From Patescibacteria group bacterium (GTDB taxonomy: Bacteria; Patescibacteriota; Minisyncoccia; Phycocordibacterales; Phycocordibacteraceae): 64,000 bases of DNA. The notes below the pieces were generated by a model. The model was given only the letters and a program-made list of their open reading frames with translations, did not search any database and was not told where the DNA came from. Shown one piece after another: positions 3,976 to 47,528 of this stretch. The number at the start of each line of letters is the position of its first letter. The first letter of the stretch is position 1. Both the position numbers and the translations under genes were made by a program. Location of the stretch: positions 106,070 through 170,069 of the forward strand of contig JBBTSO010000005.1 in NCBI GenBank assembly GCA_038064695.1, read 5' to 3'.

Positions 3976-5136
3976 CTAGACCAAAACACCACCTCCCACG
4001 CACTCATCTGTTTCGGGATTATACAAAACGATACTCTGTCCCGGTGCCACTTGTACTGGTTTTTTAAAGCGAAGTTCCGTGCCGTGCACTGAAACAGGAA
4101 TACGTTCTCCGTGGTAACGAATCTGTGCTTCAAGCAAGGAGGACTGCACATCGCTTCTAATCCAATGCATTTCTTTTACATTGCCAACCGCGCTCAAACC
4201 ATATTCTTCAACATAGGGCGAAAGAATTAATTCATTTGCATCAATATTTTTTTTAACGACGTATAATTTCTCGCCAGATCCTAAAGGAAATCGCTCTCCG
4301 AGTGTGTAAAATTGAACGCCATCATGCGTTCCGATCACCTCACCTTCGGTATTTTTTAGGTGTCCTGGCACAACCGGAATGTAGTGCTGGAGAAATTCAC
4401 GCATATCAACATGGCCTAAAAAACAAAGCCCCTGCGAATCGCGCTTTGTTGCGTTTGGAAGCCCTGCCTCATTTGCAATGCGACGCACTTCTGTTTTTGG
4501 TAACTCCCCTACGGGAAACAACGTGTGCGAAAGGTCGTCTTGAGTTAGTGTCCATAAAAAATAACTTTGATCTTTAGCCTCATCCACTCCACGCAATAAT
4601 TTGTAATCTTTGTTCCTCGCATAAGCAGAGCTTGCGTCCAGCGTTCGCTCGGACGTAATGACACTTGCGTTACTACGTCCCTCACTCACTCGGGCGTAAG
4701 CGGAGCTTTCGCTCGGCGTTCGTTCGTACGTATCAGTGCGGACACTGTCACGTACTTCTCTCACTTGAGCGTAGTGTCCCGTGGCAATAAAATCAGCGCC
4801 TTCTTTTTTTGCCTGTTCCCAAAATGCGCCGAATTTTATTTCTCGGTTACACGCAACATCTGGGTTAGGCGTCCGTCCAGAACGATACTCTTCAATAAAA
4901 TAGTCTACGACGCTCTTTTTGTACTCTTCTTCAAAGTCATAAGAAAGAAATGGGATTTCCAAATGCGCCGCGACACGCATTGCGTCCAGTCGATCTTGCC
5001 CTGAGGTACAGGGTAAAAAGTCCGGCTCCCATACCTTTAAAAACACCCCCACGACGCGGTACCCCTGTTTCTTTAAGAGGTACGCTGAAACAGCAGAATC
5101 CACCCCACCGGAGAGGCCTACAAAAACAGTTTTCAT
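3976..5136 (-). CDS. mnmA: tRNA-specific 2-thiouridylase MnmA, carrying an approx. 45-aa in-frame repeat-derived insertion
   Basis: PP-loop VGLSGGVDSAV, ATGHYA, DQSYFL and CFLG motifs. The ORF is open to 5334, but homology starts at MKTVFVGLSGG (ATG 5134-5136). The inserted segment VREVRDSVRTDTYERTPSESSAYARVSEGRSNASVITSERTLDASSAYAR is absent from typical MnmA. Confidence 0.9.
   Translation of the reverse strand: MKTVFVGLSGGVDSAVSAYLLKKQGYRVVGVFLKVWEPDFLPCTSGQDRLDAMRVAAHLEIPFLSYDFEEEYKKSVVDYFIEEYRSGRTPNPDVACNREIKFGAFWEQAKKEGADFIATGHYAQVREVRDSVRTDTYERTPSESSAYARVSEGRSNASVITSERTLDASSAYARNKDYKLLRGVDEAKDQSYFLWTLTQDDLSHTLFPVGELPKTEVRRIANEAGLPNATKRDSQGLCFLGHVDMREFLQHYIPVVPGHLKNTEGEVIGTHDGVQFYTLGERFPLGSGEKLYVVKKNIDANELILSPYVEEYGLSAVGNVKEMHWIRSDVQSSLLEAQIRYHGERIPVSVHGTELRFKKPVQVAPGQSIVLYNPETDECVGGGVLV
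4620..4745. repeat. imperfect tandem approx. 40-nt repeat with CCGAGCGA core inside the mnmA coding region (in frame)
   Basis: Two related units were read directly (gcataagcagagctt...cgttcgctcggacg and gcgtaagcggagctt...tcgctcggcgttcg). They encode the duplicated SSAYAR peptide. The core matches the intergenic repeat at 11.5 kb and the uvrB insertion. Confidence 0.6.
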
Positions 5137-5200
5137 CAGCTCAGTGTAACAAAAAAGCACCGAGGATATATCTCGATGCTTTTTGAACAAAGAAAGAAGG

Positions 5201-5452
5201 TTATCTTCGAAACATTCCTCGAAAGCCTCTTCTAGCTGTATAGAGTCCAAAACCGGCTGCACCACCAAAAAAACCGAGCATACCAGTTTTCTCTGGCCAA
5301 GAAATTGAAGAAAATTGCTGGTAATAAGAATCATTTTCTCCGATTAGATGAAAGAAATCTTTTTCTCCATCCAACGCATCAATGAGGGTAAAAAATTCAT
5401 CTCCCGCAAGAACTGCAAGAGCAGATCCAAAGAGTAAAAGATCAACTTTCAT
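5201..5452 (-). CDS. small secreted/membrane Gly-rich hypothetical protein
   Basis: 83 aa with signal-like N-terminus MKVDLLLFGSALAVLAG. It is only plausible if mnmA starts at 5136; otherwise it overlaps the mnmA extension. Confidence 0.3.
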   Translation of the reverse strand: MKVDLLLFGSALAVLAGDEFFTLIDALDGEKDFFHLIGENDSYYQQFSSISWPEKTGMLGFFGGAAGFGLYTARRGFRGMFRR

Positions 5453-5549: not shown

Positions 5550-6527
5550 TCAATTTTTTAAAAATCGTCTATTTTCCACATGCTCATCAAGAGTGCGCCC
5601 ATAGTGCATTTCCCCGTCAAAACCTGTTAGATAGTAGAAATAGGGTGTTTCCACAGGGTTCACCGCGGCTTTGAGCGACTCAAGCCCTGGGTTGGCAATA
5701 GGCCCTGGAGGGAGTCCCTTATTTTTGTACGTGTTGTATGGCGAGTCGGTAGTAACCAGTTCATCGAACGTTGGGCTAAAGGTATCTATGCCAAAAATGT
5801 ACCCGAACACTGCGTCTACCTGAAGCGGCATACCAATTTTTATGCGCTTCCATAAAATGCCTGAAATAATTTGCCGTGTTTCATACTGACGCGCTTCTTT
5901 TTCTAAAAGAGACGCCATCGTTACCACTTCAGAGAGCGGGACACCGAATGCCACTATATCTTCCTTAAGTACTGTTATTTGTTTTTCAAATTCACTTTCC
6001 ATTGTACTAATGACTGTTTCAGGCAACACGCCATCAGAAAACAAATATGTTTCAGGAAATAGATACCCCTCGTGTTCTTTTGCTTGCGTGATGAATGCCT
6101 GCTCATCAAACGAAAGGAGAGCTTCACTTAGCAGGCGCGCTATATCGCGCACCGTTGAACCTTCAGGAATAGTAACTTTTATTAAGGGAAGTCCAGTTTC
6201 TCCTTTTAGAGTTCGCGTGATGACGTGAAAAACAGAGAGTGGTCGTTCAAAACTATACGCACCGGCACGGATATTATTTTCTCCTCCTACAAGACGTACC
6301 GCATTGGTAAAGAAAAAAGATGAACGGATAACATCTTCTCGCTCAAGAATGGAACCGACTTCACGCACACTTGACCCCCCCGGAATAGTAACAGCCATGT
6401 TTCTAGGAAATGAAAAAGGAGGTATAACGTACAGAATGAAAAAAGTAACCAAACACACTGCCACAACCACTCCGTACGAGTACAGTGGCCTCCCAATAAT
6501 GCGCTGAAAAAGGTCATGAATGATCAT
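5550..6527 (-). CDS. mltG: endolytic murein transglycosylase MltG (YceG family)
   Basis: N-terminal TM helix, YceG-like domain, conserved GLPPGPI motif near the C-terminus, about 325 aa. Confidence 0.85.
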   Translation of the reverse strand: MIIHDLFQRIIGRPLYSYGVVVAVCLVTFFILYVIPPFSFPRNMAVTIPGGSSVREVGSILEREDVIRSSFFFTNAVRLVGGENNIRAGAYSFERPLSVFHVITRTLKGETGLPLIKVTIPEGSTVRDIARLLSEALLSFDEQAFITQAKEHEGYLFPETYLFSDGVLPETVISTMESEFEKQITVLKEDIVAFGVPLSEVVTMASLLEKEARQYETRQIISGILWKRIKIGMPLQVDAVFGYIFGIDTFSPTFDELVTTDSPYNTYKNKGLPPGPIANPGLESLKAAVNPVETPYFYYLTGFDGEMHYGRTLDEHVENRRFLKN

Positions 6528-11376: not shown

Positions 11377-11465
11377 AATTATTACTGAGTATACCGTATC
11401 TAGCGTTCAATAAAAAAACCATATCTCTGCTCCTTCAAAGCGAGGACAATGCACATTTTTGAGAC

Positions 11466-11600
11466 TTAGACCCGGGCTCGTTTCTCACTTAAGCGAGGCG
11501 ATACTTGTTTTGAGGAGAGTAAGACTTGGGCTAGCGCCCTGGAGCGCTCTCCGAAAAATGAGTATCACCGAGCGACTCTCTACTTTCAAACGAGTGAAGA
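11466..11600. repeat. intergenic palindrome-rich repeat element (family with copies inside uvrB and mnmA)
   Basis: gagacttagacccgggctcg...gagagtaagacttgggctagcgccctggagcgctctc...tatcaccgagcgactctc. Compare uvrB 39925-39995: agactaagacttgggcaagcgccccggagcggtctc...atacccgagcgacc. Confidence 0.65.
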
Positions 11601-11628
11601 GAGTATTTAAATAGATTTAAATACTCTT
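11600..11628. promoter_or_regulatory. perfect 13-bp AT-rich inverted repeat AGAGTATTTAAAT-AGA-ATTTAAATACTCT (operator or terminator-like) between the membrane-protein gene and leuS
   Basis: Read directly. Perfect 13/13 arms. Too AT-rich for a canonical intrinsic terminator stem. Confidence 0.4.
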
Positions 11629-11654
11629 GAGCGAGCGCTGAAAGCAAGCTTTGC

Positions 11655-12197
11655 TTATTCTTTGAATTTCTTAACCCCAATATACACAAGCACGATGAGT
11701 GCAAGTCCCACAATGCCTAGACGAATGTAATCACCCGCTGCTTCCCAATAACGAACTGAAGCGATGATGAACGAGAGAACACCTCCGTACGAAAGTCCTG
11801 CGGACACTGCGGGAGACATACGAAGCACAAACCCAAGTCCGATTGACAGCGCGCCGAGCACCACGAGCGCGACAAATACATTTTGTGAGTACGCTTTTCG
11901 CTCATCTTCATATTCCATCTGACAGGTAAAGAATTCGTTACAATAACCCTTCGGTTCAGAGAGGTCTACTGGTTTAACGTCAGTGTACGGCGGATTCCAC
12001 TGCCCCCCAACGGCAACACACGATTCTTCAGAATCCAAAACGGGGCGTACTTGCTGTTGTACACAGAAATCTTCAAACTTCGGTTCAGGCGTTACCGTCT
12101 GAATCGCTACCGCAAAAAATAAGTTGAGAATAATAATTATGCCAATTGAGAGTGCCCACTTCAGCACACCTTTGCCTTTAAATTGGGTTGCATCCAT
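11655..12197 (-). CDS. hypothetical membrane protein (N- and C-terminal TM helices, Cys-containing ectodomain)
   Basis: 180 aa with hydrophobic segments ALSIGIIIILNLFFAVAI and VFVALVVLGALSIGLGFVL...GLALIVLVYIG. No family recognised. Confidence 0.5.
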   Translation of the reverse strand: MDATQFKGKGVLKWALSIGIIIILNLFFAVAIQTVTPEPKFEDFCVQQQVRPVLDSEESCVAVGGQWNPPYTDVKPVDLSEPKGYCNEFFTCQMEYEDERKAYSQNVFVALVVLGALSIGLGFVLRMSPAVSAGLSYGGVLSFIIASVRYWEAAGDYIRLGIVGLALIVLVYIGVKKFKE

Positions 12198-26927: not shown

Positions 26928-26941
26928 ACCTTTTGCTTGTT

Positions 26942-27100
26942 TTAAGCGTTATTTAACACGTGCTCAATAAACTCAGGCATTGAAACCCCTACTGCCGCGA
27001 GGGACTTCGGAAGAAGTGAATTTTCAGTGAGACCAGGGAGTGTATTCACTTCCAAAAAGTAAATACCTCGGGGGGATACAATAAAATCACTGCGCCCTCG
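26942..27100 (-). pseudogene. displaced, diverged duplicate of the ddl 3-prime end (last approx. 47 codons), preceded by an in-frame stop
   Basis: Own translation: ...RSDFIVSPRGIYFLEVNTLPGLTENSLLPKSLAAVGVSMPEFIEHVLNNA*. Intact ddl at 30281-30450 reads YSRSDFIVSPRGIYFLEVNTLPDLRDISLFSVALGSVGVNMSEFIEHILKLVYEK*. A 49-nt stretch (27043-27091) is identical to 30381-30429; the flanks are about 60 percent identical. Confidence 0.75.
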
Positions 27101-27831: not shown

Positions 27832-29155
27832 TTTTATTTTTCCTTTCGTAGATTTTTGCTATATTCTTCAATTAGAAGAATATAGCACAAGGCGCTACTT
27901 AGTTGCGTTAAAAAAATTCCTTTTCAGACGAAATCTCCAACAACGCCAACGACTTGTCTTAACACAACGAATAAAATTAACCTTGTTTCTGAGCGTTGCT
28001 ATGTATCTTGGAATTCTGACTAGTATTTATATCTTTACATCTGGAACAACTGCTCTTGTGTCCTACTTAGGAACTACAATACTAATTCCCTTAATCGTTG
28101 CTTTAGCAGATACAGTTATTACACCTGGTACATACCTTTTAAAGAAACGGATTAGAGCGTCTGCGCAACGTAAGCTTAAAAACTATAAAAACATTGTCAC
28201 TATCGTAATCGCTGGCAGTCATGGCAAATCGACAACAAAGACGTTTTTGTACGAACTACTACGATACCACTACAACACCAAGATGGCTCTGAGAAATATT
28301 AATACGCCAATGGGTATTGCTGATTGGATAAACAAAGAATTGCATGGCGGGGTGGATATTTTGATAGCAGAAATTGATACGTATTGGGTAGGAGAAATTA
28401 CTGATTCATGTCATATGCTTCGGCCCCGTCATGCGATCGTAACATCACTAGGCGAACAACATCTTGTTCGATTTAAAAACCAAGAAGAATTGCATCAAGC
28501 GCTACTTGAGACATTCACCTGTACCACAATAGATGGTTTGAAATTGGCACCACGAGAACTGAAAAATAATCTAGAGAAAAAAGGTTTAAATGACATCATA
28601 TATGTGGATGATATTCCGTACTACGCAGGGAGAAAGATAGAAACTCCGCAACTTTCTGAGACACAAAAAAAAGATCTCTCTTTGGCGCTTCGTATGGCAG
28701 AGGAATTTAGTATTCCAGAACATATAGTGGTCGATATTTGCTCGAAACTTACACCGCCTGATCGCAGGCAGGTTCAAAGCAAAATGCACGGCTTTGAAGT
28801 TGTTGATGATTCATACAATATTAGTTTTGAAACCGCACAAAAAGGTATCACCAGAGCGGCTGAGCTTGCAAAAGAAAAAAACAAAAAACTACTGATAGTA
28901 ACTGCGGGTATTCCTGAGCTGGGAAAAGAGAACGCGCAAGCGAATACCAAACTGGGGCAACAGATGGCTATCACAGCAAATTACATCGCTATATTGAAAT
29001 CTGACTTTCACAAAGCAATAATCGAAGGTATACCAAAAAAGAGTAGCTATTCTCTATACCCTTCTATTGACGATTTCTGGCTCGCTACTGAGTCATTCCC
29101 CAAGGACGAGTGGTTAATTCTTGTACAACCAGAACTAACTGATTTATATTATTGA
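27797..29155 (+). CDS. membrane-anchored Mur-ligase-family protein, MurF-like (UDP-MurNAc-peptide ligase family)
   Basis: Two N-terminal TM helices, then Mur ligase P-loop VIAGSHGKSTTKTF, central-domain acidic/His residues, and the C-terminal VVDDSYNISFE (MurF-type IDDSYNANP). Confidence 0.7.
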   Translation: MALLKNLLRVTNFIFPFVDFCYILQLEEYSTRRYLVALKKFLFRRNLQQRQRLVLTQRIKLTLFLSVAMYLGILTSIYIFTSGTTALVSYLGTTILIPLIVALADTVITPGTYLLKKRIRASAQRKLKNYKNIVTIVIAGSHGKSTTKTFLYELLRYHYNTKMALRNINTPMGIADWINKELHGGVDILIAEIDTYWVGEITDSCHMLRPRHAIVTSLGEQHLVRFKNQEELHQALLETFTCTTIDGLKLAPRELKNNLEKKGLNDIIYVDDIPYYAGRKIETPQLSETQKKDLSLALRMAEEFSIPEHIVVDICSKLTPPDRRQVQSKMHGFEVVDDSYNISFETAQKGITRAAELAKEKNKKLLIVTAGIPELGKENAQANTKLGQQMAITANYIAILKSDFHKAIIEGIPKKSSYSLYPSIDDFWLATESFPKDEWLILVQPELTDLYY

Positions 29156-30291
29156 TCAATAAATTTTTCTACAATTGAAGAGTCATAGTCAAGCCTCTGT
29201 GCGTCAAATTCCACCTGTCGTTGTCGAGCATTTTCGATGAGTAAACTGAATTGTTGTGTATATGGTTCACCTGTAGCCTCCCAGAGATAGAAAGCGAGTG
29301 ACCCGGGGATGGAATTTACTTCGGTCAAATAAAGCACGCGGTCCTTAGTGTACATAAAGTCAATACGCACCATCTGACTCTGTCGAGTGGCTCGAAATAC
29401 CTTTTTGGCTGTTTCTTGAATTTCTGATCGCAAAGATTCAGAAATATCAGCAGGAAGCTCTCGATTGAGTGAAGCCATGCCTTGTTGTGCTGTTTTTTTG
29501 CCACCTTTTTCGTACTTTTCCGCAAAACTGAGAAATGCTTCTTTTGAAAGAGGGCGTTCAATCTCGCTTGTCTCAATAACTCCGTTATTTTCTCTCACTG
29601 AACAGTTGTATTCAACAAAGTCTGTAAGTAGGGTTTCAACCAGTATCTCATTATCTACATGCGAGGCTTTTAAAAGAGCTTTTTCAAGTTCAATTTTTGA
29701 GTGTGCGATATCTAGTCCAATTGACGACCCCAGATGAACTGGTTTAACGATGAGATCATCGCCTAGCGTACGACAACACTTTTCAACAATCTCCTGAGTG
29801 TTTTTACGAATTTCTACTGAGGTGAATGACAAACCTGGTACAGTTCTCACTCCTTCTTGAGAAGCTAAATTTTTAGTAATCTGTTTATTGAGTGCTATTA
29901 CGGAACCTTCGATTGAAGGAGATGAATGGGCAATGTTACATGTCTCAAGTAATCCTTGCACTTTTCCACCCTCGCCACCTCCTCCATGAAAAGCCAATAA
30001 TGCTGCATAAGGATAAATGCTTTTTGAAAAAAAACCATTAGTACGCACAAACCCTCCATGTTGGTTTTTTCCAAAAGAAACTGAGACACGTTTGTTTTTT
30101 AAAAATCCTTTTCGAGATTTTAACTTTGGCAAATAATAAAAATCGTTTTCTTTTGAAATATAAATAACGTGCGGAGTATAAACTTCTGTGTCTAAGGCTT
30201 CTAGAGCCTGCAATCCAGTCACGACAGACACCTCGTGTTCGGGTGAAGTTCCCCCAAACATAAGTAATATAGGTTTTCTTTCACTTTTCAT
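29149..30291 (-). CDS. ATP-grasp ligase of the D-Ala-D-Ala ligase family (second, divergent copy)
   Basis: Ddl-like N-terminus ILLMFGGTSPEHEVSVVTG and an ATP-grasp C-terminal half (YTKDRVLYLTEVNSIPG). 380 aa, highly diverged from the adjacent ddl. Confidence 0.7.
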   Translation of the reverse strand: MKSERKPILLMFGGTSPEHEVSVVTGLQALEALDTEVYTPHVIYISKENDFYYLPKLKSRKGFLKNKRVSVSFGKNQHGGFVRTNGFFSKSIYPYAALLAFHGGGGEGGKVQGLLETCNIAHSSPSIEGSVIALNKQITKNLASQEGVRTVPGLSFTSVEIRKNTQEIVEKCCRTLGDDLIVKPVHLGSSIGLDIAHSKIELEKALLKASHVDNEILVETLLTDFVEYNCSVRENNGVIETSEIERPLSKEAFLSFAEKYEKGGKKTAQQGMASLNRELPADISESLRSEIQETAKKVFRATRQSQMVRIDFMYTKDRVLYLTEVNSIPGSLAFYLWEATGEPYTQQFSLLIENARQRQVEFDAQRLDYDSSIVEKFIDQ

Positions 30292-31252
30292 ACACGAGTT
30301 TCAGAATGTGCTCAATAAATTCACTCATATTAACACCGACAGACCCTAATGCTACTGAAAATAGTGAAATGTCTCTTAGGTCGGGCAGAGTATTCACTTC
30401 CAAAAAGTAAATACCTCGGGGGGATACAATAAAATCACTACGCGAGTAATGTCTGAGCCCCAAAGCGCTATGCGATACCGCGGCGAGCGACTTTAACTCC
30501 GCACTTTCACGATCAGAAAACGACCCTGGACAACGCTCTATGGTGCGCGGGTTGTATTTTGTTTCGTAATCAAAAAACGTGCTTTGTGCTGGTAAGACAA
30601 TTTCAACGGGGGGCAAGCGGTAAACGGGCTCTCCACGAAGTCCCTCAACCACGCCCACCGTTGCTTCTTTTCCTGGAATGTATTCCTCTATCAAAATTTG
30701 AGGAGAAAACTGGAATGCGTTTTTTACTCCCGTTTGAAATTCAAAGAAGTTCTTTGCGAGTGTTACACCCACTGAAGAACCCGCACTCACCGGCTTAATA
30801 ACTGAGGGTTGCGGAAAATGCCGAAACGCATGTAGTATTTCACGATCAAGGGTGTCAGAAACTGAAAGCGTTATTCCGTAGGGAGTTTTTACCCCCATAC
30901 TCTCTAGCGTTTTTTTAGTAAGCACTTTATTCATCGCAACAGATGAAGCGTACGTGCGACTGCCGGTGTACGGAACACCTATGCGCTCTAGTACGCGCTG
31001 AACACCTCCGTCTTCCCCATACTCACCATGAAGCGCATTCCACACGACATCAACTCCCGTTAAACTTTTCTCAGGGGACGCAGGAACGCCACGAACAAAC
31101 CACTCACCCCCTTTATCAATAAAAATGTCTCGCGTTTTGTACTGCTCCGAAAATGAATGCGCTAACTGTTGCAGTACCGCGGCACCTGTTTTTAACGAAA
31201 CATCATGTTCCGCTCCCACTCCTCCGCGAATAACGGCGACAGTTTTTTGCAT
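30281..31252 (-). CDS. ddl: D-alanine--D-alanine ligase
   Basis: VAVIRGGVGAEHDVSLKTG, EEYIPGKE and SRSDFIVSPRGIYFLEVNTLPDL. 323 aa. Confidence 0.9.
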   Translation of the reverse strand: MQKTVAVIRGGVGAEHDVSLKTGAAVLQQLAHSFSEQYKTRDIFIDKGGEWFVRGVPASPEKSLTGVDVVWNALHGEYGEDGGVQRVLERIGVPYTGSRTYASSVAMNKVLTKKTLESMGVKTPYGITLSVSDTLDREILHAFRHFPQPSVIKPVSAGSSVGVTLAKNFFEFQTGVKNAFQFSPQILIEEYIPGKEATVGVVEGLRGEPVYRLPPVEIVLPAQSTFFDYETKYNPRTIERCPGSFSDRESAELKSLAAVSHSALGLRHYSRSDFIVSPRGIYFLEVNTLPDLRDISLFSVALGSVGVNMSEFIEHILKLVYEK

Positions 31253-38678: not shown

Positions 38679-38711
38679 GAAACCTATTTTATACTAGTTT
38701 TTTAAATATGT

Positions 38712-38770
38712 CAATCTTCCTGCAAATACCTCATTTTAGGCCTTATTTTGCGGGCTGGTTCGATAGGTAG
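38712..38770 (-). repeat. displaced duplicate of the uvrB 3-prime end (last 16 codons + stop), approx. 395 nt downstream of the intact copy
   Basis: RC translates ...PARKIRPKMRYLQED*, the same peptide as the uvrB C-terminus. 54/58 nt identical to 39111-39168, then abrupt divergence. Confidence 0.8.
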
Positions 38771-39076: not shown

Positions 39077-39110
39077 ACAACTTGCATAGTATCATTCAAA
39101 GTGAAATTTG

Positions 39111-41276
39111 TCAATCCTCCTGCAAATATCTCATTTTGGGCCTTATTTTACGGGCTGGTTTAACGGGTTTTGGTAACTTTTCTTCAAGTTTAATAATTTC
39201 GTCCCGCAAAAGTGCGGCGGTTTCAAAGTCCAGCACTTTCACCACTTCTTCCATTTCTGCCTTTTTATCTTTTATGAGCTGTTTTAGGGCCTTGGGGCTG
39301 TCCGCAATAGCCATATCAACCATCAACGCCATAGCGGTCGCTCTATCACGGTCGGCTTTGAGCGAATCAGTAATGTCGTGGATAGTTTTCTTAATAGTTG
39401 CAGGGGTAATGCCATGCTTTTTATTGTATGCCAACTGCACTTCGCGACGGCGGTTTGTTTCTGCAATTGCTTTTGTAAGAGACCCGGTCATTTCGTCTGC
39501 ATACAAAATCACTCGCCCATTTACATTTCGTGCTGCACGCCCAATGGTTTGAATGAGAGATGTTTCGCTTCGTAAAAATCCTTCTTTATCGGCGTCCAAA
39601 ATTCCCACCAACTCCACCTCGGGCAAGTCCAACCCTTCACGGAGCAAGTTCACTCCGACCAAGCAGTCAAATTTTCCACGCCTAAACTCGGTCAAAATAG
39701 TAATACGTTCTATTGTTTTTATATCTGAGTGAATGTATTCCGCTTTCACTCCCTTCTCTTTCAAAAACTCCGCCAAATCTTCCGCCATTTTCTTCGTGAG
39801 TGTGGTCGTGAGTACGCGCCCTCCGCCCGCCACCACTTTTTCAGTCTCTTCAATAAAATCCGCCACTTGCCCCTTATACTGTTCCTCAGTGTTTTCTGCC
39901 TTTTTAGCGAGGGTGTCCCTCGCAGAGACTAAGACTTGGGCAAGCGCCCCGGAGCGGTCTCTAAGAGGGATACCCGAGCGACCTGTGACGGGGCGAAGAA
40001 TAATTTCCGGATCAATGAGCCCTGTGGGGCGAATAATTTGCTCCACCACCTGTGTTGAATGTTCAAACTCATACGCGCTCGGTGTTGCGGACGTGTAAAT
40101 ACGCTGTCCGAGTCGCGCGTCTATTTCGTCAAATTTTAATGGGCGGTTGTCAGCGGCCGATGGTAGACGGAATCCGAAGTCTATCAATGTTTTTTTACGC
40201 GACTGATCCCCCGCATACATTCCTCCCAACTGCGGAATGGTTACGTGTGACTCGTCAATAATAGTGAGAAAGTCTGGCGTGCCATCTTTCTTATGAGGAA
40301 AATATGAAAGCAAAGTGTACGGTGGCTCGCCGGGTTTTCGGCGGTCAAAGTGGCGCGAGTAGTTTTCAATGCCGTTGGTGTAGCCAATTTCGCGAATAAG
40401 CGCCAAGTCATACTTGGTGCGGCGCTTCAAGCGCTCCGCCTCCAACAACTTCCCTTCTGCTTCAAATTTTTTAAGTTGCGATGCTAACTCCGCTTCAATA
40501 TCAACGAGTGCCACCTCTCGTTCTGACTCTGGTGTCACGTAGTGTTTTGCAGGGAAAAGGAAAAAAGTATAAGGTTCGTCAATAATTGACCGCGTTACTC
40601 CGTTGATGCGCGAAATTCTATCAATTTTTGTACCGTCCGGCACAACGCGATAAATAGTGGTTTCATTCACCGGCATCACTTCTATTTGGTTCCCTACCGC
40701 ACGAAAGGTGCCGGGAGTTAAATCAGCGTTCGTGCGCTCAAACTGCAACGCAATCAAAAAGCGCATAAATTCTGCACGTTCAAATGCGTCTCCGACAGAA
40801 ATTTTCCGATGCACCTTTTCATACTCGTCTGGTGAACCAAGTCCGTAAATACACGACACTGACGCCACGATAATGACGTCGGAGCGCGTCAACAGCGCTT
40901 GCGTTGAGGCGTGGCGCAAACGATCAATTTCTGCGTTAATCTGCGCTTCCTTCTCTATATAGGTGTCCGAGTGCGGCACGTACGCTTCCGGTTGGTAGTA
41001 GTCGTAATAAGAGACGAAGTAGTGAACGGCATTTTCAGGGAAAAACTCCCGATACTCTTGGGTTAACTGTGCTGCGAGTGTCTTGTTGTGGGCAATAACG
41101 AGAGTTGGTTTTTGCACCTGTTGAATCACATTTGCTGCCGTAAAGGTCTTTCCAGACCCCGTCACGCCCAGAAGGGTTTGGTGTGTATCACCACGTTTAA
41201 TACCCTTTACCAACGCCTCTATCGCCTTTGGTTGATCCCCTGCGGGTTCATACTCTGAATGGAGTTTAAAATTCAC
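39111..41276 (-). CDS. uvrB: excinuclease ABC subunit B, carrying an approx. 37-aa in-frame repeat-element insertion
   Basis: Walker A GVTGSGKTFT, DESH, helicase motifs, beta-hairpin, C-terminal UvrB/UvrC interaction domain. The insertion VTGRSGIPLRDRSGALAQVLVSARDTLAKKAENTEEQY sits between the conserved ...ILRPV and KGQV...RVLTTTLTKKMAEDL. Confidence 0.95.
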   Translation of the reverse strand: MNFKLHSEYEPAGDQPKAIEALVKGIKRGDTHQTLLGVTGSGKTFTAANVIQQVQKPTLVIAHNKTLAAQLTQEYREFFPENAVHYFVSYYDYYQPEAYVPHSDTYIEKEAQINAEIDRLRHASTQALLTRSDVIIVASVSCIYGLGSPDEYEKVHRKISVGDAFERAEFMRFLIALQFERTNADLTPGTFRAVGNQIEVMPVNETTIYRVVPDGTKIDRISRINGVTRSIIDEPYTFFLFPAKHYVTPESEREVALVDIEAELASQLKKFEAEGKLLEAERLKRRTKYDLALIREIGYTNGIENYSRHFDRRKPGEPPYTLLSYFPHKKDGTPDFLTIIDESHVTIPQLGGMYAGDQSRKKTLIDFGFRLPSAADNRPLKFDEIDARLGQRIYTSATPSAYEFEHSTQVVEQIIRPTGLIDPEIILRPVTGRSGIPLRDRSGALAQVLVSARDTLAKKAENTEEQYKGQVADFIEETEKVVAGGGRVLTTTLTKKMAEDLAEFLKEKGVKAEYIHSDIKTIERITILTEFRRGKFDCLVGVNLLREGLDLPEVELVGILDADKEGFLRSETSLIQTIGRAARNVNGRVILYADEMTGSLTKAIAETNRRREVQLAYNKKHGITPATIKKTIHDITDSLKADRDRATAMALMVDMAIADSPKALKQLIKDKKAEMEEVVKVLDFETAALLRDEIIKLEEKLPKPVKPARKIRPKMRYLQED
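39925..39995. repeat. palindrome-rich repeat element inserted in frame in uvrB
   Basis: agactaagacttgggcaagcgccccggagcggtctctaagagggatacccgagcgacctgtgacgggg. Same family as 11466-11600. Confidence 0.7.
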
Positions 41277-46318: not shown

Positions 46319-46339
46319 GCATTTTTACCTAAGCGAAGG

Positions 46340-46393
46340 AAAAGACTTTTCGAAAGGGCTTGTAGCGTACATCCCGCTTGCGAAAAGCCTTTG
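46340..46393. repeat. hairpin repeat element with conserved loop (copy B), downstream of nrdB
   Basis: AAAAGACTTTTCG-aaagggcttgtagcgtacatcccgcttg-CGAAAAGCCTTTG. The loop shares GAAGGGCTTG-AGCGTACATC with copy A. Confidence 0.7.
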
Positions 46394-46493
46394 ATGGAGT
46401 GTAATATACTACCGAACGAAGTGAGAAATGAGAAAGTAAATTTTCTCATTTGAACAAGTGAAGGGAGCAAGAATTTTGTTTATAACAAAATTC

Positions 46494-47528
46494 TTACCAC
46501 TCCAAATTTCCTCCTGTTTTGTACTCAGTTACACGCGTCTCAAAGAAATTTTTCTTCTTTGAAAGGTCAATTGCTTCCGACATCCACGGAAATGGGTTAG
46601 TAACGCCAAATTGCGCAGGTAACCCCACACGCTCCAGTCGTCGGTCCGCAATGTGTTCAATGTACTGTTTAAATCCATCGGCGTTCAAACCAAAAATTCC
46701 TTTGGGAAATACTTCTTGCGCGTAGGTATACTCTAATACCGTTGCCTTGCGCACCAAGTCAATAATTCGATCTTTAAACTTTTGCGTCCAAAGGTCAGGG
46801 TTTTCTTCTTTGAGTCCGTTAATGATTTCAATACCGAAGTTTAAGTGCATGCTTTCGTCACGCATGATGTACTCAATTTGCTCCGCGCTTCCCGTGAGTT
46901 TGTTTTGGCGTTTGAATCCAAACACCACCGCGAACGATGAGTAGAAGAAAATACCTTCCAAAATAAGCGAAAATACGCACCAGTTTTCCAAAAACTTTTG
47001 ATCTGCTTCAAATGTCCCTGTTTTAAATGCACCGTCAAAAACGCCTTCGTTAAAGCCTAAAATGAATTCTTCTTTGTTGTAAATCGCGTCTACCTCACGG
47101 TACATATTGAAGATTTTTGCTTCATCCATTGCCAAGGACTCCACAATGTACTGATATGCGTGCGTGTGGATTGCCTCTTCATACGCCTGGCGCAAAAGGT
47201 ACATGCGGATTTCAGGCGAGGTCACGTGTTTGTAGAATCCCATCACAATGTTGTTGGCGGCAATAGAATCCGCGGTGGTGAAAAACCCGAGCACCGTTTC
47301 AAACGCACTTCTTTCGTCTGCCGTGAGCGCTGTTTTACTTTTCCACTGCTCAATGTCCAACTGCATTGAAATTTCGGTCGGCAACCAGTGGTTCGCGTTT
47401 GCGTTGTTGTAGTACTCCCACGCAAACTTGTGCTTCATCGGATAGAGCTGAATGACGTCAGCTTCAAGCCCGTTGATGATGCGACGATTGTTTACATTGA
47501 CAGGAGGTGCTTTTTTTATGATTGCCAT
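46494..47528 (-). CDS. nrdB: ribonucleotide reductase class I beta (R2) subunit
   Basis: Diiron ligand pattern (EAIHTHAY, EGIFFYSSF...), radical-Tyr region. 344 aa. Confidence 0.9.
   Translation of the reverse strand: MAIIKKAPPVNVNNRRIINGLEADVIQLYPMKHKFAWEYYNNANANHWLPTEISMQLDIEQWKSKTALTADERSAFETVLGFFTTADSIAANNIVMGFYKHVTSPEIRMYLLRQAYEEAIHTHAYQYIVESLAMDEAKIFNMYREVDAIYNKEEFILGFNEGVFDGAFKTGTFEADQKFLENWCVFSLILEGIFFYSSFAVVFGFKRQNKLTGSAEQIEYIMRDESMHLNFGIEIINGLKEENPDLWTQKFKDRIIDLVRKATVLEYTYAQEVFPKGIFGLNADGFKQYIEHIADRRLERVGLPAQFGVTNPFPWMSEAIDLSKKKNFFETRVTEYKTGGNLEW

Follow-up and report, generated by a model that had tools for sequence, protein, structure and literature searches.

In Rickettsia, the Rickettsia palindromic elements (RPE) RPE-1 to RPE-10 are palindromic repeats inserted in frame within housekeeping genes (Ogata et al. 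2000, summarised in PMC10969869). A similar situation is described here in a Patescibacteria group bacterium, within a 64,000-nt stretch of contig JBBTSO010000005.1 (assembly GCA_038064695.1, positions 106,070 to 170,069 of the forward strand), hereafter the window. The tRNA 2-thiouridine synthase gene mnmA of the window contains an additional segment composed of two head-to-tail 75-nt units of a dispersed hairpin-forming element, named R1. With a probability of about 80%, this segment represents two head-to-tail copies of a small non-autonomous selfish hairpin repeat, similar to RPE or to repetitive extragenic palindromic sequences (REPs), which is tolerated in frame by its host gene.

RPE and R1 are both short dispersed palindromes of a reduced genome, found in frame in unrelated housekeeping genes as well as in non-coding DNA. 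In both cases the encoded conserved peptide is compatible with the host fold (PMC10969869), which for R1 is a matter of structure prediction. RPE measure approximately 100-150 bp and belong to Rickettsia, while R1 measures approximately 78 nt and belongs to Patescibacteria. Unlike RPE, R1 is bordered by TAC on both sides, forms head-to-tail arrays and contains a conserved basal helix with tandem G.A pairs. The analogy with RPE was first drawn in an earlier note on this DNA, made from the sequence alone, and is supported by the dispersed palindromic nature of R1 and its in-frame presence in genes and in non-coding DNA. The sequences of R1 and RPE appear unrelated. As its host is a Patescibacteria MAG, R1 is treated here as an analogue of RPE and not as a member.

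The intragenic GTAG/CGTC REPs are small stem-loops found in several phyla, mostly downstream of genes (Di Nocera et al. 2013, PMC3733652). Many of them occupy genes for replication and repair, uvrA and uvrB among them. Dimers encode 20-30 aa, and GTAG REPs are thought to be moved by REP-associated tyrosine transposases (RAYT) (PMC3733652). REPs are 20-40 bp long, with stems of 5-13 bp and an unpaired GTAG/CGTC tag at one end, whereas R1 is twice as long, consists of a composite rod with a tail of 15 nt, and carries GTA at either end. On the bottom strand, R1 starts with GTAAG, and the flank behind the element reads GTAG, GTAA or GTGA. R1 thus falls outside the definition of a REP in both size and tag.

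IS608, of the IS200/IS605 family of insertion sequences (IS), inserts 3′ of TTAC, has no terminal inverted repeats and carries subterminal imperfect hairpins. It recognises its target through base pairing to a short guide located beside the hairpin foot (PMC3201880, PMC5934647, PMC5027513). As in IS200/IS605 elements and their transposase-less derivatives, the left end of R1 abuts YTAC and terminal inverted repeats are absent, and the single-strand circle movement of this family would fit a hairpin element such as R1. In contrast to IS200/IS605, R1 has one large hairpin and a 4-bp mini-hairpin in place of separate left-end and right-end hairpins. Moreover, unlike IS608, its own 3′ end equals the target TTAC, and some copies display longer flanking duplications. 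[quoted passage not shown] MITEs share with R1 occasional in-frame fusions to open reading frames (ORFs), structured transcripts and a location near gene ends (PMC10969869 for the MITE side). However, MITEs match a parent IS, while in R1 the pairing of the arms is confined to a helix with G.A mismatches and the tail is unpaired. By analogy, R1 works like the RPE, REP and IS608 systems, and its assignment to RPE, MITEs or IS200/IS605 derivatives needs the partner enzyme. A literature search on MITE, REP, RAYT or palindromic elements in Patescibacteria or Parcubacteria returned no description of such repeats, and R1 appears to be an undescribed family of a known element type.

An additional in-frame segment in MnmA

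The mnmA gene lies at positions 3976-5136 of the window on the minus strand and encodes 386 aa, as identified from its ORF, Pfam and PDB matches and Foldseek. It is enclosed in a longer ORF (3976-5334, minus strand) and starts at MKTVFVGLSGG. The protein matches the Pfam domains PF03054 (tRNA_Me_trans, E=8e-73), PF20259 and PF20258 (M and C domains), and an alignment of relatives indicates that the PP-loop motif SGGVDS, both catalytic-cysteine contexts and the DQSYFL block are retained. Positions 3976-5136 encode an intact MnmA, with its PP-loop ATPase, central and C-terminal barrel domains.

The earlier note had reported extra MnmA residues between the ATGHYA and DQSYFL blocks, which is borne out by comparison with solved structures and with uninterrupted relatives. 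In a phmmer search against the PDB, MnmA structures match at E=5e-81 in two blocks (query residues 4-130 and 178-385). The solved chains are continuous from residue 139 to residue 142, leaving approximately 47 query residues (131-177) without counterpart, and they have a two-residue beta-hairpin turn where the window MnmA has its insert. Compared with the uninterrupted relative L026 (HYAQAREVRGKRALYQG), the insert in host register covers positions 4615-4749 on the minus strand, slightly beyond the 4620-4745 first proposed. It comprises 135 nt, equivalent to 45 codons (residues 130-174); the reading frame is preserved, as had been claimed, and mnmA is intact. The insert peptide, DSVRTDTYERTPSESSAYARVSEGRSNASVITSERTLDASSAYAR (45 aa in the register of uninterrupted relatives), is hydrophilic and rich in Ser, Arg, Ala, Thr and Glu. 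It is located between the ATGHYA and DQSYFL blocks, and more precisely between the native strands AQVREVR and NKDYKLLR.

A protein identical to the window MnmA is deposited as MEK7613931.1 (from a Patescibacteria metagenome-assembled genome, MAG), and since it recurs in assemblies from ENA, NCBI and Logan, an artefact of assembly is not the favoured explanation. No insert length polymorphism was found within the 90% identity cluster of MnmA. The best BLASTP matches of MnmA originate from MAGs of Patescibacteria, Kaiserbacteria, Paceibacteria and UBA2163.

The effect of the insert on the protein was assessed with an AlphaFold (AF2) model built from a 24-sequence alignment, with a mean predicted local distance difference test (pLDDT) of 85 and a predicted template-modelling (TM) score (pTM) of 0.82. 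Residues 131-174 form the only stretch with a pLDDT below 50, between the strands AQVRE (123-127) and YKLLR (178-182). With Foldseek, the model matches the solved MnmA structures 2hma and 2der with a target-normalised TM score of 0.86 and a root-mean-square deviation of 2.5 Å. The insert is predicted to be a disordered loop at the tip of a beta-hairpin, the MnmA fold being otherwise intact, in agreement with the surface loop that the earlier note had proposed to look for. Most likely, the repeats are translated and form a flexible loop of 45 residues. Hence the suggestion that a housekeeping enzyme accommodates a repeat-derived peptide loop is supported by the relatives that lack the insert, by the dispersed copies of the repeat described below and by the intact predicted fold.

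Lineage specificity had been proposed as a check on this suggestion, and the insert is absent from the closest relatives and patchy in others. The nearest relatives of MnmA are 340-360 aa long and have no insert at the corresponding HY^A site (the caret marks the insertion point). Among the proteins without insert, P0002 is 65% identical by BLASTP and 72% identical in the alignment of relatives. P0006 contains one unit at the same site (VREVRSSARTDTHERTLSERSAYAQ) and P0059 contains one R1 unit (VSEGENDARVDFSERTKRESSAYA), while in P0051 the R1 peptide (ASEGNTGHRMSSVSERTTSESSAY) is found at another MnmA site, between GQSLVFY and DEEGKQCLGGG. In the DNA of relatives L001-L004, the same R1 element lies behind each MnmA insert. 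The HY^A site is occupied in the window, L001 and L003, where the host reads CAC TAC^GCT CAA G, and the FY^D site is occupied in L004 after the Tyr codon (TTT TAC^GCTCAAG...GCTTAT^GAC). It seems that insertions have landed repeatedly at the two Tyr positions. Other segments were observed there: in P0120 and P0038, the FY^D site, close to the C-terminus (alignment columns ~430-460), holds dissimilar insertions that are 25-32 aa long, and at HY^A the segments of P0021 and P0064 are longer and degenerate.

At the DNA level, a 39-nt direct repeat (79% identity) is found in mnmA at a spacing of 75 nt, and the two units, A and B, are identical at 48 of 75 positions (64%). Unit A (4696-4773, minus strand) spans 78 nt from its 5′ TAC to its 3′ TAC and is matched at 4699-4773 by a covariance model of R1 (57.2 bits, E=6e-12; the window was scanned with filters off). 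The left arm of unit A falls on the codons by which the host encodes AQVREVR, and its stem reads GTACGT.ACAGTG/CACTG.ACGTAC. Unit B (4621-4698, minus strand; 82.2 bits, E=4e-18) has TAC 4696-4698 in common with unit A. Its boxes are close to the R1 consensus and its central stem has decayed, so that in comparisons of the DNA fold with shuffled sequences unit A reaches z=-2.3 and unit B z=-0.07 (stem lost). In host register, the insert is made up of 54 nt of unit A (hairpin, right arm and tail), the 75 nt of unit B and 6 nt (GCGAGG) of a left-arm remnant. Unit A is 83% identical to the L001 unit, while unit B is nearer to the R1 consensus and to the L003 unit than to unit A. This suggests that the two units are probably, judging from these identities, separate acquisitions or an old duplication and not the product of recent slippage.

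The period of 75 nt (25 codons) replaces the tandem unit of approximately 40 nt given in the earlier note; the apparent 40-nt period is due to GAGCGA-like boxes located on both hairpin arms of each unit. Tandem Repeats Finder (TRF) did not report the 75-nt duplication in mnmA because the units are only 64% identical. The 8-mer CCGAGCGA was considered as evidence of homology and rejected: it has 4 matches in the window versus 1.54 expected, 4 of 100 shuffles reach this number, and its two copies inside mnmA occupy non-homologous positions of their units. The link proposed earlier between mnmA and the repeat at 11.5 kb holds through the full-length R1 at 11581-11658, while the CCGAGCGA core alone is not significant.

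At the protein level, a phmmer search with the 50-aa insert peptide against 1.84 billion representatives returned one spurious match to an unrelated repetitive protein, and a search with the doubled 25-aa unit peptide gave no word matches. Third codon positions are 72% identical (18/25) between unit A and the L001 unit, compared unit to unit. In the gene alignment of the window and L001 mnmA, they are 81% identical over 27 insert codons and 39% identical outside the insert. The better conservation of third positions in the insert than in the rest of mnmA suggests either that R1 is younger than the split of the hosts or that it is under DNA-level constraint. A younger R1 would imply that the site was hit more than once or that the element passed from one lineage to another.

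Copies, hosts and structure of R1

An nhmmer profile built from five units matches window positions 11581-11658 (E=4e-6) and the syntenic intergenic region of L001. Across all loci, nhmmer yields 31 matches (approximately 24 non-redundant). The covariance model yields four matches in the window at E<=1e-8 and 25 matches in 23 other loci. The R1 density in the window is thus four copies in 64 kb. The two intergenic copies are both on the plus strand. The full-length copy at 11581-11658 (covariance model 80.6 bits, E=1e-17; fold z=-4.05) lies between leuS and a membrane-protein gene, antisense to both, and its terminal TTAT overlaps the opposite-strand stop codon of the gene at 11655-12197. The copy at 46407-46497 (43.6 bits, E=1e-8; fold z=-5.5) abuts the opposite-strand stop codon of nrdB and has a longer nrdB-terminator hairpin in place of the 3′ mini-hairpin. 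The same hairpin follows nrdB in relative L024. An empty site was sought downstream of nrdB in close relatives, where L024 has a degenerate remnant and L022 an unrelated sequence, leaving no clean comparison.

The consensus of R1 consists, after a YTAC flank, of NNYC-RAGTGAGCGAGG, a variable perfect stem-loop and CCGAGCGAACG-NN-GRNN-G-AAAGCTCTGCTTAC, followed by the right flank, for a length of 74-82 nt from TAC to TAC. Among 20 copies, the left flank is TAC in 17, CAC in 2 and AAC in 1, with YTAC in most, and the right end is TAC or TAT in 19. The presence of TAC on both sides, the right end also being TTAC, is compatible with a 3-nt duplication or with a design in which the target equals the end. 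A degenerate 30-nt pattern of the R1 right end was found in five contigs, all from Patescibacteria MAGs, and in twelve metagenome contigs, for a chance expectation, estimated from the degeneracy of the pattern, of approximately one match in 596 Gb.

R1 occurs singly or in tandem arrays with one common TAC, in both orientations and in coding and non-coding DNA. It is found in frame in tatD after GLDYY (L010 and L021), in the same frame as in mnmA (RVSEGRGNSEAISMSERTKGASSAY). At the rplL stop codon, it is present in L008 (4805-4882) and, as two identical tandem copies, in L017 (7139-7291), and at the glmS stop codon, in L019 (1048-1127) and, as three or four tandem copies, in L016 (663-881). It is also found at the D-loop position of tRNA-Gln-like and tRNA-Ala-like fragments and in plain intergenic DNA. 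At the syntenic site upstream of leuS, R1 is antisense in the window and sense in L001, and it is antisense to nrdB and to the tRNA fragments. This mixed orientation argues for an action at the DNA level. All seven coding copies, representing at most approximately four independent events, are multiples of 3 in length without frame-0 stops, while among 13 non-coding copies six are multiples of 3 and seven contain frame-0 stops.

Several observations concern the tRNA-associated copies. L009 (~5897-6170) and L013 (~323-764) contain tRNA-Gln(UUG)-like 5′ fragments with R1 in the D-loop and a second copy of R1 nearby. In both, another small hairpin with the core AGTATGGGATACT follows the 5′ strand of the T-stem and there is no 3′ strand of the acceptor; the L009 fragment has a further insertion in the anticodon loop. 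The possibility that R1 acts as a tRNA intron in L009 and L013 was rejected, since ARAGORN finds no tRNA after in silico excision of R1 and the 3′ acceptor strand is missing, which argues that these are pseudo-tRNA fragments. In L007 (1573-1740), a half-degenerate R1 comes after an intact tRNA-Gln(CUG), and 20 nt from the 5′ part of the tRNA (TACCATTAGACGACCCCGCA) are repeated on both sides of R1, a flanking duplication far longer than TAC. A scan with Rfam 15 returned only tRNAs, in the window (gathering threshold) as in six element-bearing loci (E<=0.1).

R1 folds as a rod-like hairpin on either strand, with covarying pairs. RNAalifold predicts 26 pairs from 20 copies, 19 of them with compensatory changes. 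The fold consists of an outer 5-bp helix, a basal helix, a perfect stem of variable sequence and a 4-bp mini-hairpin (AAGC TCT GCTT) located directly before the terminal AC. In the basal helix, the facing GAGCGA boxes form two G.A/A.G mismatches in tandem, with G-C and C-G pairs between them. The arms pair subterminally through these mismatches, leaving the 15-nt 3′ tail unpaired. For an 11-pair skeleton, tested on the same sequences from which the structure was derived, 89% of the cells are paired versus 29-50% with slid partners. The covariation score is 0.47 versus at most 0.195 when slid, and none of 500 shuffles reaches the observed value. In addition, a C-G to T-A switch inside the boxes of six sequences shows that the two boxes are paired to one another, beyond being direct repeats. 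The intergenic copies fold far better than shuffled sequences (z=-4.05 and -5.5), the copies in genes more weakly.

Borders, movement and alternative explanations

The borders of R1 repeatedly resemble the host DNA. The uninterrupted HY^A site of L026 (TACGCTCAAGCGAGAGAAGTGCG; CAC TAC GCT CAA GCG AGA GAA GTG CGA GGA AAA, HYAQAREVRGK) is nearly identical to the left arm of unit A. HYAQAREVRGK aligns without gap with the E. coli segment, which is presumably HYVRRADVDGK, and other repeat-free relatives have Q-[VIA]-x-x-V after HYA. The AQVREVR of the window is therefore probably native, in which case the inserted DNA proper would be the 135 nt at 4615-4749. A likeness to the left arm (GAGCGAGGGAAACACTG) is also seen in the right flank of the FY^D copy (GAAGAGGGGAAACAGTG). 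In rplL (L008), R1 supplies ACT CTC AAG TAA and the native ACT TTA AAG TAA is found immediately to its right, and in glmS (L019), R1 supplies ACT GTC GAG TGA, with the native ACG GTG GAA TAG to its right. R1 thus re-creates the conserved C-terminus of rplL (TLK-stop) and glmS (TVE-stop) with synonymous codons. Furthermore, the mnmA insert in host register ends in a partial left arm, GCGAGG in the window and GCGCAGAGT in L001. These look-alikes could reflect selective filtering of left-arm variants that already existed, recombination across a core of homology, or pairing with the target in the manner of a guide, between which the data do not decide. Integrating elements such as tRNA-targeting islands and the prophage e14 in icd also restore the 3′ end of their target gene. 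Like them, R1 replaces the last codons of rplL and glmS synonymously and leaves the native end adjacent, with the difference that restoring elements are kilobase-scale and encode an integrase, while R1 has 78 nt.

As a selfish hairpin repeat, R1 would act at the DNA level. Copies in genes would be translated, and only frame-preserving, stop-free insertions in a tolerant surface loop would escape selection. Such copies would then decay, as the already degraded stem of unit B suggests. As the likeliest route, it is tentatively suggested, by analogy with IS200/IS605 and REP/RAYT, that R1 might move by single-strand, hairpin-recognising HUH/Y1 transposition. Insertion would occur 3′ of a YTAC target, and the TTAC 3′ end of R1 itself would provide a new target with each copy, which would explain the head-to-tail arrays.

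Several points weigh against the selfish-repeat reading, this route included. As L026 resembles the left arm, the left border of the mnmA insert has an ambiguity of 21 nt. Plain cutting at TAC and pasting accounts neither for this look-alike nor for the flanking duplications of 14-20 nt at rplL (L017) and tRNA-Gln (L007). Exact-pattern scans gave few copies (5 and 12 loci). The occupancy of the same site across lineages could reflect inheritance with loss rather than repeated insertion. Finally, no transposase or recombinase was seen among the ORFs of at least 110 aa read by eye in the 64-kb window, so that the mechanism of R1 movement is purely inferred. Pfam scans of three less obvious window ORFs gave housekeeping matches or none, and neither the ORF list of these 64 kb, read by eye, nor the few Pfam-scanned ORFs contain a RAYT or TnpA candidate. 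Likewise, an autonomous partner sought by eye, with no family scan, beside the half-element of L011 was not found, the neighbours being purine-biosynthesis and ordinary ORFs.

The main alternative is that R1, circular or in tandem, recombines through a core of homology, in the manner of attP x attB, its junction (GCTTAC^NNYCRAGTGAG...) being exchanged with left-arm-like host sites. The left arm would then replace the look-alike host codons, displacing the native codons to the right of R1. Look-alikes exist at four sites (mnmA HY^A, as in L026 TACGCTCAAGCGAGAGAAGTGCG, FY^D, rplL and glmS), and the partial left arm at the end of the mnmA insert in the window and L001 is what a Campbell-type event predicts. 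However, the tatD and tRNA D-loop sites share only TAC with R1, the glmS similarity lies at the amino-acid level (by eye, about half of ~12 nt identical) and is better fitted by a selection filter, and no recombinase was seen in the window; this route is somewhat less likely than not. A bolder proposal, which is unlikely, is that R1 is a coding-neutral mobile element for ultra-compact genomes, its right arm pairing with left-arm-like host DNA, which would extend the guide principle of IS608, or its core recombining. If so, host codons would be replaced by a synonymous copy. R1 could then sit in or at the end of essential genes (mnmA AQVREVR, GlmS ...VTVE-stop, L7/L12 ...VTLK-stop) and leave their proteins unchanged, which would explain why the same sites are re-occupied across lineages by copies younger than the host genes.

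The rod-like helix, which covaries strongly and has conserved G.A pairs in tandem, the many copies situated at the 3′ end of a gene (nrdB, rplL, glmS or the membrane-protein gene) and the copies in tRNA-Gln-like sequences, which at first suggested splicing, would suit an element acting as RNA, either an intron-like segment or a cis-acting hairpin under selection for stability, termination or regulation. This is very unlikely given the mixed orientation relative to transcription, opposite at the syntenic leuS site, and the interrupted tRNA-Gln sequences, which lack the 3′ strands of the T-arm and acceptor and yield no tRNA after excision. Moreover, the coding copies all preserve the frame and are stop-free, which splicing would not need, there is no Rfam match and the stems in genes are decaying (unit B z=-0.07). 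Even less probable is a functional protein module under selection, for example an extra tRNA- or partner-binding loop. The peptide is a hydrophilic loop and third positions are conserved at 72% (18/25) and 81% in the insert versus 39% outside, but synonymous sites are thereby conserved too, which points to a recent origin or DNA-level constraint. The same sequence is also present in non-coding DNA and unrelated proteins, the closest relatives have no loop, and the loop is predicted to be disordered. Hardly credible, lastly, is a purely local slippage or tandem duplication of native mnmA. It would account for the tandem 75-nt period, the native-like left arm of unit A and the homology of unit A with the L001 unit (83%), but not for the full-length intergenic copies in the window (E=1e-17 and 1e-8), nor for the R1 copies that other genomes carry in tatD, at the second mnmA site, next to rplL and glmS, and within tRNA fragments. 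In addition, unit B fits the R1 consensus (82 bits) better than it fits unit A (64% identity).

Patescibacteria have tiny, gene-dense genomes with many unexplained insertions in conserved proteins, some of which are copies of a structured selfish repeat. This is the same situation as in the textbook case of Rickettsia and suggests a convergence of two reduced-genome lineages. A calibrated R1 model can flag repeat-derived loops in proteins of the candidate phyla radiation (CPR), with use for annotation, alignments, phylogenomic markers and structure prediction, as well as for copy counts and the search for the mobilising enzyme. The covarying rod, the TAC borders and the mimicry of host codons provide testable handles on how a 78-nt element chooses safe sites in essential genes.

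D15-type elements and other repeats of the window

A second repeat, D15, is found at 11492-11583 (plus strand), directly upstream of the R1 copy at 11581-11658. It starts with AGCGAGG, followed by a long hairpin with the core GAGAnTAAGACTTGGGCnAGCGCCC and then CCGAGCGAC. It corresponds to the intergenic 11.5-kb repeat of the earlier note, is matched by nhmmer at 11497-11582, and shares 37 nt at 89% identity with positions 39925-39961. The latter belong to a D15-type element inserted in frame in uvrB (39890-39981, plus strand, uvrB being on the minus strand), of 90-93 nt and encoding approximately RSGIPLRDRSGALAQVLVSARDTLAKKAEN. The uvrB site is empty in L022, in which UvrB is 92% identical (GTCACAGG^CAGTGAGAATTAT, CAGTGAG...), while in an alignment of UvrB from 120 relatives, other close relatives have 78 or 141 nt at the same site, with the common peptide motif ERSGPLGQVL.

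The uvrB insertion had been noted to contain the same core as the repeat of mnmA. The insertion is real and a basal module is common to both, but neither the R1 nhmmer profile nor the R1 covariance model matches it. On sequence grounds, the uvrB insert is best placed in the D15 family, separate from R1, the common part being only the basal module AGCGAGG...hairpin...CCGAGCGA. D15 is also not bounded by TAC in the manner of R1. R1 and D15 are adjacent at 11.4-11.66 kb and in L005, and they may plausibly share an origin or a partner protein. The intergenic repeats of the window are mixed R1/D15 arrays. Degenerate modules starting with (T/A)AAGCGA(G/A)G were also observed directly upstream of the R1 copies, at 46320-46406 and 11437-11490. 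The uvrB insert is of double length (44-47 aa) in P0123 and P0125 (L024, 7085-7300), with an internal repeat (QDLRSATTDVLA / QVLRSTTTDVFA), which suggests that D15 also forms in-frame tandem copies.

The 59 listed window ORFs of at least 110 aa, of which 50 are on the minus strand, include an ATP synthase operon and uvrABC. At the end of uvrB, a 57-nt direct repeat (38704-38760 and 39104-39160, 91% identity) duplicates the last codons and the stop codon. The two repeats are separated by approximately 400 nt containing a 45-aa membrane-like ORF and hairpins, and in two close relatives only 52-56 nt lie between uvrB and uvrA. This duplication resembles one more insertion that has rebuilt the 3′ end of the gene it entered. 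Finally, a 166-nt direct repeat (72% identity) is found at 26930-27095 and 30278-30443. One copy is located at the junction of adjacent ORFs (29149-31252), putative D-Ala-D-Ala ligase paralogues by sequence alone. The other follows a tRNA-Ala, is apparently non-coding and may be a gene fragment.

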